Positions 27,592 to 28,692 of a stretch of 50,866 nucleotides of DNA are shown in pieces. Each line of letters starts with the position of its first letter. Position 1 is the stretch's first letter. This DNA is from a virus (lineage: Duplodnaviria > Caudoviricetes). The DNA lies in IMG/VR virus record IMGVR_UViG_3300021057_000014, positions 1 to 50,866 of that record; one strand, given 5' to 3'. The notes beneath the pieces are model-generated. The model ran no database searches. It had not been told where the DNA came from and saw nothing but the letters and a program-made list of their open reading frames with translations. The position numbers and the translations under genes are program-made.

Positions 27592-28063
27592 CTGCCGTTG
27601 CACCACACAACATAGCCTTTGCCACGCGCTGCCCAGCCGAGCAATGCCGTCGTCCCACGAAGCGGAACGATGCCGTTGCCGTACCCGACAGTGCCACGCA
27701 GTACCATTGCCTCGCGTTGCTCTACTTGGCTTTGCCACGGCTACGCTCAACACTGCCTCTGCAAAACATAACAGCACTGGGCCGTCGCTCTGCTGTTCAG
27801 CGCGCCACCCTACAACGCAGGGCCACCGCATCACACTACCGCGCCTCTGCCAGACCTAGCGCAACGCCACAATACCGCTGCCTTGCTCAACGTCACATTA
27901 CCCTCGCGATGCTAAGCGTCACCACCGCGCGGCTTTACATGGCGCAGCCACCGCTTCGCCTTACACGGCGATACCATCGCCCCACCCTGCGGATCATCAC
28001 GTTGCCTTAGCTGCACAGTGCTACGCCTTGCCCGCGCAATGCAACACTCAGCGCCGCGCTACC
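27592..28063 (-). ncRNA. Pentameric NGY-NN array (91 units, 17 blocks plus a terminal unit); putative guide-RNA precursor for the adjacent Cas7-like protein
   Basis: Hand-parsed: 88 of 91 pentamers are N-G-Y-N-N. Every block starts with GGY, and blocks are separated by one extra nucleotide. The array ends in T7. Confidence 0.85.
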
Positions 28064-28692
28064 TATGCGCTCTTCGTGAACTCCAACTTGAAATCCGCCC
28101 GCCCCCACCCGGCGTTACGCCACTGCCCGAAGCCCTTCCCGTCGCGCCCGTACTCCAAGCACGCCTCGATGATCCGCTCCGGGTGCTTGAACGGATGCCC
28201 GTCGTAGATGCGGAGAGAGCAATCGAGATATGTCCCCGCGTTCACGAACTCCGAGAGAGCGAGGCTGACGCGCGGCCCCTGCATGGTCATGGCCCGGAGG
28301 GGGCGCTCGTGGACACCGTGCGGGTCCTTGATGGCCGAACCGTCAGCAGCCTTGAGGTAGAGCCGCCGGGGCGTGATGAAGAGGTAGTTGTCGAGCTTGC
28401 TCCGGAGGTTCTTCTCGCCCAGCATGTCCTTCAGGATGTTCGACGCCTCCTTGAAGAAGCCCTTGATGGAGTAGTCGTAGAGGAAGAGCCCCTGCGCGTC
28501 TCGGTGGAAGCCCGTGCAGCCTTTCTTCTCGTCCACCTCGGGGAGCGTCTCGACCTCGCTCTCGGTCTCGGAGAGCGCGTCGGCGCGCTTGACCTTCAGG
28601 CTCTCGATGTACTTGGAGTAGATGTCCGCGCTCAGGGGAGCCGACCCGAGCAGGGGCTCGATGAACGTCAACCGGACCTTCGCATCAATCAC
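28063..28692 (-). CDS. Solo Cas7/RAMP-like RNA-binding protein (209 aa)
   Basis: N-terminal strand VRLTFIEPLLG, S.IKGFFKEA helix, thumb-like ERPLRAMTMQGPRVSL..SE, and C-terminal G-rich loop GKGFGQWRNAGWGR. Confidence 0.8.
   Translation of the reverse strand: MIDAKVRLTFIEPLLGSAPLSADIYSKYIESLKVKRADALSETESEVETLPEVDEKKGCTGFHRDAQGLFLYDYSIKGFFKEASNILKDMLGEKNLRSKLDNYLFITPRRLYLKAADGSAIKDPHGVHERPLRAMTMQGPRVSLALSEFVNAGTYLDCSLRIYDGHPFKHPERIIEACLEYGRDGKGFGQWRNAGWGRADFKLEFTKSA

Follow-up and report, generated by a model that had tools for sequence, protein, structure and literature searches.

Whether a small, solitary relative of the Cas7 proteins can serve an RNA-guided system in a phage without CRISPR is the question raised by one locus of the IMG/VR virus record IMGVR_UViG_3300021057_000014, the whole of which (50,866 bases, 63.6 % G+C, estimated CheckV completeness 100) was analysed and is referred to here as the window. 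On the minus strand of the window, a gene encoding a protein of 209 amino acids (aa) is directly followed by a non-coding stretch that can be divided into five-letter units. A preliminary description of the locus had read this pair as a candidate non-CRISPR, Cas7-like, RNA-guided system and had pointed to its likeness to VIPR (Viral Interference Programmable Repeat), a viral system described as consisting of a minimal RAMP protein, Vipr, and RNAs (vrRNAs) composed of GGY/NN pentamers (10.64898/2026.04.26.720920; 10.64898/2026.04.26.720927). According to the text of these two preprints of April 2026, one Vipr protomer occupies each repeat, the GGY trinucleotide is sequestered, the NN dinucleotide pairs with double-stranded DNA (dsDNA) with one target base skipped per unit, and the outcome is the transcriptional silencing of rival phages and satellites (10.64898/2026.04.26.720920; 10.64898/2026.04.26.720927). 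The results presented below, namely a predicted fold, profile homology to the Vipr of phage SUSP1 and the conservation of the array, point in the same direction as the earlier reading, and the locus is very probably a VIPR system in a complete 50.9-kb soil phage genome. The 209-aa gene is therefore called vipr in what follows.

The array was parsed by dynamic programming into a tiling of pentamers, which rewarded a G in the second place and a pyrimidine in the third and penalised single skipped bases. This parse reproduced the one given in the preliminary description, with 91 units of which 88 fit N-G-Y-N-N, the same three exceptions (TGATC, TGAAC and GACGA) and the same TTTTTTT after the last unit. 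The successive modules contain 6, 5, 6, 5, 5, 4, 5, 6, 4, 8, 5, 4, 6, 6, 5, 6, 4 and 1 units, with one extra base between modules, and a typical module opens with GGYNN, continues with 3–7 NGYNN units and ends with the single extra base. By hand count, the first unit of a module has a G before GY in 18/18 cases, compared with 17/73 of the other units, while the unit that closes a module ahead of the shift carries C as its pyrimidine in all 16 junctions scored, mostly with purines after it. The global parse score of 142 lies far above that of 300 mononucleotide shuffles (mean 18.4, standard deviation 7.2, maximum 40). The array also stands alone when 5-nucleotide (nt) periodicity is followed across the genome, as the preliminary description had proposed: with the array masked, the best local parse of the whole genome scored 20.0 on the plus strand and 16.5 on the minus strand, versus 132.5 for the array itself, and on the minus strand the ten 200-nt segments with the strongest lag-5 GY autocorrelation lie without exception within 27466–28166 (excess 9.0–22.0; next 7.0). 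A local parse that is left free to extend continues into the end of vipr as far as 28154, because the codons of the G-rich loop (G-loop) encoded there are themselves G-rich; 10 of the 17 units in this stretch break the rule, and it was left out of the unit count. The array is real and unique in this genome.

The protein encoded by vipr contains both of the hallmarks that had suggested a RAMP or Cas7-like protein, since its open reading frame (ORF) includes the G-rich loop GKGFGQWRNAGWGR as well as the N-terminal strand given in the preliminary description. Searches of Pfam, PHROGs, PADLOC and NCBIfam with the 209-aa sequence returned no family, and a large protein collection yielded 626 relatives at E ≤0.001, with no Pfam domain or functional name among the 120 listed. 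An AlphaFold2 model (pLDDT 89, pTM 0.85) predicts an RRM-like core, a β-hairpin at residues 126–150 and a loop at residues 185–198 that precedes the last strand. The structural comparison of this model by Foldseek, another of the checks proposed earlier, gave 195 PDB matches at E ≤0.001, the best being type VII Cas7 (2.6e-10), followed by Csm3, and all 50 entries among the structure matches listed are CRISPR RAMP complexes or subunits. Judged from the model, the protein is a RAMP with a thumb and a G-loop. The alignment of 40 family members contains 19 invariant residues, which cluster in ERPLRAMTMQGPRV and in G-x-G-Q-[WF]-R-N-x-x-x-G-R.

The relationship to Vipr itself was assessed by comparison with the SUSP1 reference, a 195-aa gene situated between two long intergenic regions that hold GGYNN runs; its family comprises 529 proteins, of which 32 were aligned. 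Comparison of the 40-sequence family of the window with the 32-sequence SUSP1 family by hhalign gave a probability of 96.3 % (E 1.7e-9) over 179 columns, which corresponds to the full length, while comparison with the single SUSP1 sequence gave 80.5 % over 40 columns of the G-loop region only. When the family profile was searched against PDB sequences, type VII Cas7 (E 2.3e-4) and, weakly, the SUSP1 Vipr chain 36pp_D (E 0.46) were found, both in the G-loop region. The residues D177-W178-R179 of SUSP1 Vipr are described as the contacts of G1, G2 and Y3 (10.64898/2026.04.26.720927). The corresponding G-loop columns hold Q in 38/40, an aromatic residue in 39/40 and R in 40/40 sequences of the window's family (n=40), as against D in 27/32 and R in 32/32 of the SUSP1 family (n=32). 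The other SUSP1 contact of G1, H17, is kept in 28/32 members of the SUSP1 family and has no aligned counterpart in the window's family. In its GenBank entry, Escherichia phage phiSUSP1 (locus L081 of the set examined here) carries an unannotated VIPR locus, with two ‘hypothetical protein’ genes between the intergenic regions 27499–28031 and 29061–29511; the downstream region holds three GGYNN runs, with a near-identical tail after at least the first two.

If the array is functionally tied to the protein, the pairing would be expected in relatives, and the preliminary description had accordingly proposed a survey of homologues. Two sets of loci were compared: the best 80 of 270 stretches encoding a relative in IMG/VR viral contigs, and 30 loci from GTDB genomes, drawn from 185,579 species genomes and all located in metagenome-assembled genomes (MAGs) of many phyla. 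An array was called when it lay on the same strand as the gene and its local score reached 30, a threshold just above the highest value given by 400 shuffles (29.5). Such arrays are present in 75/80 IMG/VR loci and in 26/30 genome loci. Among the 75, 53 are downstream of the gene, with a median distance from stop codon to array of 0 nt, 17 are parsed into the gene end and 5 are upstream. The five IMG/VR loci below the threshold are L012, L018, L045, L065 and L077, and the failing genome loci are L086, which ends 70 nt past the gene, L110, L113 and L114; locus L084 ends within its vipr homologue. Scores of at least 30 were also obtained on the minus strand in 37/80 loci, and such opposite-strand scores are expected because NGC reads GC on both strands. 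The closest relative, L083 (66 % protein identity), has an array that begins at the stop codon and follows the same grammar, with entirely different variable bases. As had been anticipated, the periodic arrays are thus kept and their GY anchors conserved while the variable positions diverge, and the pairing of vipr with the array is conserved. The possibility that the array is a coding sequence was rejected, as the 5-nt period with its +1 shifts breaks the frame and the closest relative shares the anchors and none of the variable bases. Among the longer arrays, that of L092 (3611–5222) has 312 units and lies on a Thermodesulfobacteriota MAG contig of 1.78 Mb, and the parse of L019 (2032–5220) spans 3.2 kb and may join several arrays across the gene.

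The modular grammar seen in the window recurs throughout the family. The register shifts are of exactly 1 nt in 1373/1424 cases, and internal module sizes peak at 5 units (364 modules) and 6 units (323), followed by 4 (189) and 7 (124). Modules open with a GGY unit in 1058/1424 cases, compared with GGY in 1564/6408 of the other units, 5262/6408 of which are NGY. A logo of 1604 junctions from 96 distinct arrays shows G1 in 85 % of opening units versus 31 % of inner units, while the pyrimidine of the closing unit is C in 67 % versus 46 % of inner units, with A or G next. As a positive control, the parser read the SUSP1 vrRNAs as uninterrupted runs of about 15 GGYNN units with a tail, and the punctuation of the window's family is therefore not a parser artefact. 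The median length of the family arrays is 470 nt. A T-run follows 9/100 arrays, no conserved tail was found in the 40 family array ends inspected, and the last 91 nt of the array in the window fold no better than shuffles (z −0.06). No Rfam family reached its gathering score across the whole window, so that neither a hammerhead-interspersed array nor a ribozyme is indicated, and promoter and terminator scans gave nothing exceeding shuffles near the array.

The constraint on individual positions was estimated from 79 pairs of non-identical modules of equal length and at least 80 % identity, which are not independent of one another. Differing positions numbered 6/411 at G2, 5/79 at the opening G, 54/411 at Y3, 56/411 at N4 and 60/411 at N5, and the freest positions were N1 (67/332) and the extra base (19/79), by a modest difference. 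This freedom, modest as it is and drawn from non-independent pairs, suggests that N1 carries no guide information and does not act as a third guide base. Whole modules also come and go. The arrays of L040 and L041 (about 3601–4489 and 3601–4448, respectively) share 24 collinear modules at 73–100 % identity, with 6 whole modules private to L040 and 5 to L041, at four places. The module thus behaves as the unit of turnover in this pair, and each module is accordingly read as one guide.

The locus shares with the type II VIPR of SUSP1 (Vipr, Vap1 and four vrRNAs; PDB 36pp) a small single-RRM RAMP with a thumb and a G-loop of the form G-x-G-[D/Q]-aromatic-R. Both systems are phage-borne, with same-strand, G-Y-anchored 5-nt repeats flanking the gene and with no CRISPR array or other cas genes. 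They differ in the organization of the repeats: SUSP1 has uninterrupted runs of approximately 13–15 GGYNN units with a structured tail of approximately 45 nt, whereas the window has tail-less modules of 4–8 units with one-base separators. They further differ in the first repeat base, which is G in SUSP1, whereas in the window the repeat is NGY, D177 is replaced by Q190 and H17 has no aligned histidine; moreover, SUSP1 has a vap1 neighbour and the window has no vap1-like gene. The locus thus departs from type II VIPR (the SUSP1 clade), since no long GGYNN tract, structured 3′ tail or vap1 was found in it.

Other arrays in print also bear comparison with that of the window. The Methods of the VIPR report list YNNGG, NNNGG, YNNNG and NNNNG as alternative repeats, with at least four units required, and the legend of its fig. 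S18 describes ‘staggered’ arrays, whose individual vrRNAs have a 1-nt overlap, so that each begins where the one before it ends (10.64898/2026.04.26.720920). NGYNN is YNNNG in another register, and the earlier remark that the first base is also variable here agrees with the YNNNG repeat of these Methods. When the array of the window is read in the YNNNG register, the G that opens a module also closes the last unit of the previous one, which would be an overlap of 1 nt of the staggered type. As far as the legend and Methods text allow the comparison, the array is probably a ‘staggered’ VIPR type. The same report counts 670 Viprs in seven types, with six named vap genes (10.64898/2026.04.26.720920), and, to go by these numbers, a VIPR type without a vap gene may exist. 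A preprint of 22 October 2026 on the language-model mapping of intergenic space has likewise described VIPR-like 5-nt arrays in which a fixed trinucleotide is degenerate at one position (10.64898/2026.10.21.760802). These arrays resemble that of the window in their degenerate trinucleotide (WGT/NN, TGH/NN) and in lying beside Vipr-like folds; they differ in that the motifs named are not NGY and repeat 10 times, and in that the passages on them describe no +1 punctuation.

The Cas7 backbones of class 1 CRISPR systems (type VII Cas7, type III Csm3 and Cmr4) have a period of 6 nt, in contrast to the 5 nt of the window, and class 1 effectors are accompanied by a repeat-spacer array and partner cas genes, neither of which was found here. 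The record contains no repeat-spacer family of the CRISPR type, and a six-frame search of it with the Pfam models for Cas1 and RAMPs returned no match. The scans for cas and defence families covered the vipr ORF with two neighbours (Pfam), with five neighbours (PHROGs) and with the upstream gene (PADLOC and NCBIfam), and no such family was found among the ORFs scanned (3, 6, 2 and 2, respectively). The earlier statement that the locus has no CRISPR array and no other cas gene therefore holds within these scans, and homology to Vipr, adjacent pentamer repeats, a viral location and the lack of a CRISPR association are here found together.

By analogy with the SUSP1 system, the following mechanism may be proposed. 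The 209-aa protein would be a Vipr, a Cas7-related minimal RAMP with one RRM, and the 472 nt that begin at the vipr stop codon would be co-transcribed with vipr in a leftward operon. Vipr protomers would polymerise on the array RNA, one per pentamer, with the G-Y anchor sequestered between the G-loop, the thumb and helix 1 and the next two variable bases exposed. The exposed dinucleotides would read dsDNA, skipping one target base per unit, and binding would silence the transcription of a competing mobile element. In this family the first repeat base is free, with NGY in place of GGY, which, to judge from the alignment and one published structure, fits the replacement of the acid D177, a contact of G1 in SUSP1, by the conserved glutamine Q190. 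Each module of 21–41 nt would act as one short guide, nucleated or started at its GGY and stopped by the +1 shift, in place of the structured 3′ tail of the SUSP1 vrRNAs.

The last of these steps can be extended into a more specific and tentative proposal, which is rather doubtful as it stands, namely that the array is delimited by punctuation only. GGY would open a guide, NGY would extend it, and the extra base that follows a last unit of the C type (consensus GC-R-R-N-GGY) would close it, whereby one transcript with neither tails nor ribozymes could encode about 17 guides of 8–16 informative bases. It would be the replacement of D by Q in the G-loop that frees the first base except at the nucleating unit. 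If this is true, register alone sets the start and stop of the filament, and specificity comes from several short guides acting jointly on one target element. The published text, to the extent cited above, already covers VIPR as a class, the alternative repeat and staggered arrays; what may be new here is the start/stop grammar, its proposed link to the G-loop glutamine and the very short guides, and the family itself and its array type may already be among those published.

Several observations weigh against the interpretation of the locus as a functional VIPR system. A search of sequencing runs for the stretch retrieved four soil DNA runs and no RNA run, and thus gave no sign of transcription or processing; the four runs carry the stretch or parts of it, and their pieces over vipr and the array are identical and consequently uninformative on array variation. 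The profile comparison aligned the thumb region of the family poorly to that of SUSP1. The PDB library used for Foldseek (up to 2026-04-08) listed no Vipr chain, the model having been compared with Cas7-type structures, and the ranking is hence uninformative on Vipr versus Cas7. No conserved accessory gene of the vap kind was found: there is no vap1-like neighbour, and the glycosyltransferase family 8 (GT8)-like gene upstream of vipr, considered as a conserved vap partner, was rejected with a homologue in 0/80 related loci. The largest non-overlapping clusters of neighbours in these loci, a DnaB-like helicase (9/80) and RusA (5/80), are ordinary phage replication genes.

Searches for targets were similarly negative. 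Within the phage's own genome, modules of at least 4 units gave 213, 140, 185 and 202 hits with at most 1 mismatch when 0, 1, 2 or 3 bases were skipped per unit, which is no excess at skip 1. The 532 distinct family modules of 6–9 units gave 22, 26, 24 and 39 exact hits (skips 0–3) in 1.11 Mb of related loci with arrays masked, and the same modules with their unit order shuffled gave 36, 40 and 30 hits at skip 1 versus the 26 real ones, which places the latter at chance level. Only module 10 was long enough for a collection-wide pattern scan of IMG/VR, where it had 3 exact hits under skip 1 (L115–L117), with no gene in common; within 60 nt of these hits, the best matches to the adjacent modules 9 and 11 covered no more than 5/8 and 7/10 bases, respectively. 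Decoding of the modules as codon-position-1-2 peptides on both strands gave nothing recognisable. Guides of 4–8 units specify just 8–16 bases, which is little for unique recognition. The target negatives are no evidence against targeting.

The same observations have to be considered under other explanations of the locus. A Vipr-type filament could assemble on the array RNA and yet target RNA, as the type III and type VII Cas7 backbones do. The structure ranking is silent on this point, for the reason given above; the family profile, however, is homologous over its full length to that of the SUSP1 Viprs, a nuclease partner is absent, and RNA targeting is unlikely. In print, SUSP1-type Vipr co-purified with vrRNA and bound dsDNA (10.64898/2026.04.26.720920). 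This co-purification equally bears on the idea that the array acts at the level of DNA, whether as a row of sites bound by a protein, as an origin, as a packaging signal or as a tract that is curved or prone to R-loops, with the RAMP-like protein being unrelated or DNA-binding. Five base pairs, the period of the array, make up half a helical turn, the array strand is rich in G (40 %), and the sequencing-run search produced DNA runs and no RNA evidence, all of which would suit such a role. Yet the array follows the gene's strand in 75/80 loci, the 53 downstream arrays follow the stop codon with a median gap of 0 nt, as would a co-transcribed RNA, and the protein is homologous to an RNA-binding RAMP purified with RNA of this kind. 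Moreover, G-Y alone is conserved while the rest turns over by module, a pattern that a guide array fits better than a fixed binding site, and a DNA-level function is extremely unlikely.

An array that is decaying, or that serves as a decoy, would guide nothing, or its RNA would just titrate the Vipr proteins of rival phages. The short modules (4–8 units) and the lack of targets in the searches made are compatible with this explanation, and a preprint of 16 Oct 2026 describes solo vrRNAs as decoy-like. The array of the window, however, sits with its own vipr gene, keeps the anchor in 88/91 units and is accompanied by a protein that has a confidently predicted fold and all 19 invariant residues, the latter by construction of the alignment. 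Since the short-module grammar is the rule in about 100 arrays, it points to design rather than decay, and this explanation is very unlikely. The interpretation of the locus as a VIPR system is thus retained.

The surroundings of the locus are those of a phage. The large terminase matches PHROGs with an E-value of 9e-90, and the minus-strand gene order, from upstream to downstream, is the GT8-like gene, vipr, the non-coding array, the T7 run, the ParB-methyltransferase fusion adjoining the array and the large terminase (Table 1). The stop of the GT8-like gene overlaps the start of vipr by 8 nt, and the two genes are probably in one operon; the Atlas clusters nearest to this 489-aa gene are glycosyltransferase family 8, many of them viral, and the gene may encode a phage glycosyltransferase. 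ParB-methyltransferase fusions are common phage methylases of the anti-restriction type. A tRNA scan found no tRNA in the window. Two short tandem repeats lie elsewhere in it, with repeats of 9/18 nt at 35805–35845 (TTCTTCTCT-like) and of 11/22 nt at 35848–35926 (TGTTGGGTNCC-like), the latter with four copies spaced 11 nt apart.

Table 1. Positions of the vipr gene, the array and neighbouring features in the window
Feature	Position	Strand	Basis and remarks
Glycosyltransferase family 8-like gene, 489 aa	28685–30154	−	ORF; Pfam GT8 E 0.01, below curated cut-off; Atlas nearest clusters GT8, feature score 0.98
Shine–Dalgarno-like AAGGAGG	28699–28705	−	Sequence; 6 nt upstream of the vipr GTG
vipr gene, 209-aa predicted minimal RAMP (single RRM, thumb hairpin, G-loop), GTG start	28063–28692	−	ORF and model
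Residues 126–150, long β-hairpin, predicted thumb	28243–28317	−	Secondary structure of model; invariant R130, P131, L132, R133, T136, G139, P140, R141 (40 sequences)
Residues 185–198, G-loop GKGFGQWRNAGWGR	28099–28140	−	hhalign; Q190-W191-R192 align with SUSP1 D177-W178-R179
Predicted vrRNA array of 91 pentamers, grouped into 18 modules of 5n+1 nt	27592–28063	−	Dynamic-programming parse; 472 nt; begins at last base of vipr stop codon
Module 10, longest module (8 units, 16 variable-dinucleotide bases)	27785–27824	−	Parse
T7 run directly after last unit GGCAG, possible transcript end	27585–27591	−	Sequence; no stable hairpin before it, terminator scan negative
ParB N-terminal domain fused to N6/N4 DNA methyltransferase	26299–27528	−	PHROG 498, E 5e-128; directly downstream of array
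Large terminase	24298–25938	−	PHROGs

The class of VIPR systems, which are programmable RNA-guided DNA binders of the non-contiguous kind, is only months old, and each well-documented natural variant helps to define what the protein requires. The locus described here, together with roughly 100 relatives, provides a natural data set for this purpose, in which a relaxed NGY anchor occurs with a G-loop substitution, guides are tail-less and delimited by the +1 shift and GGY, and modules are turned over; the L040 and L041 pair is a natural case for how arrays gain and lose guides. The grammar of these arrays bears on the nucleation and termination of the filament and on the minimal length of a guide, and it could inform the design of compact multiplexed VIPR arrays.

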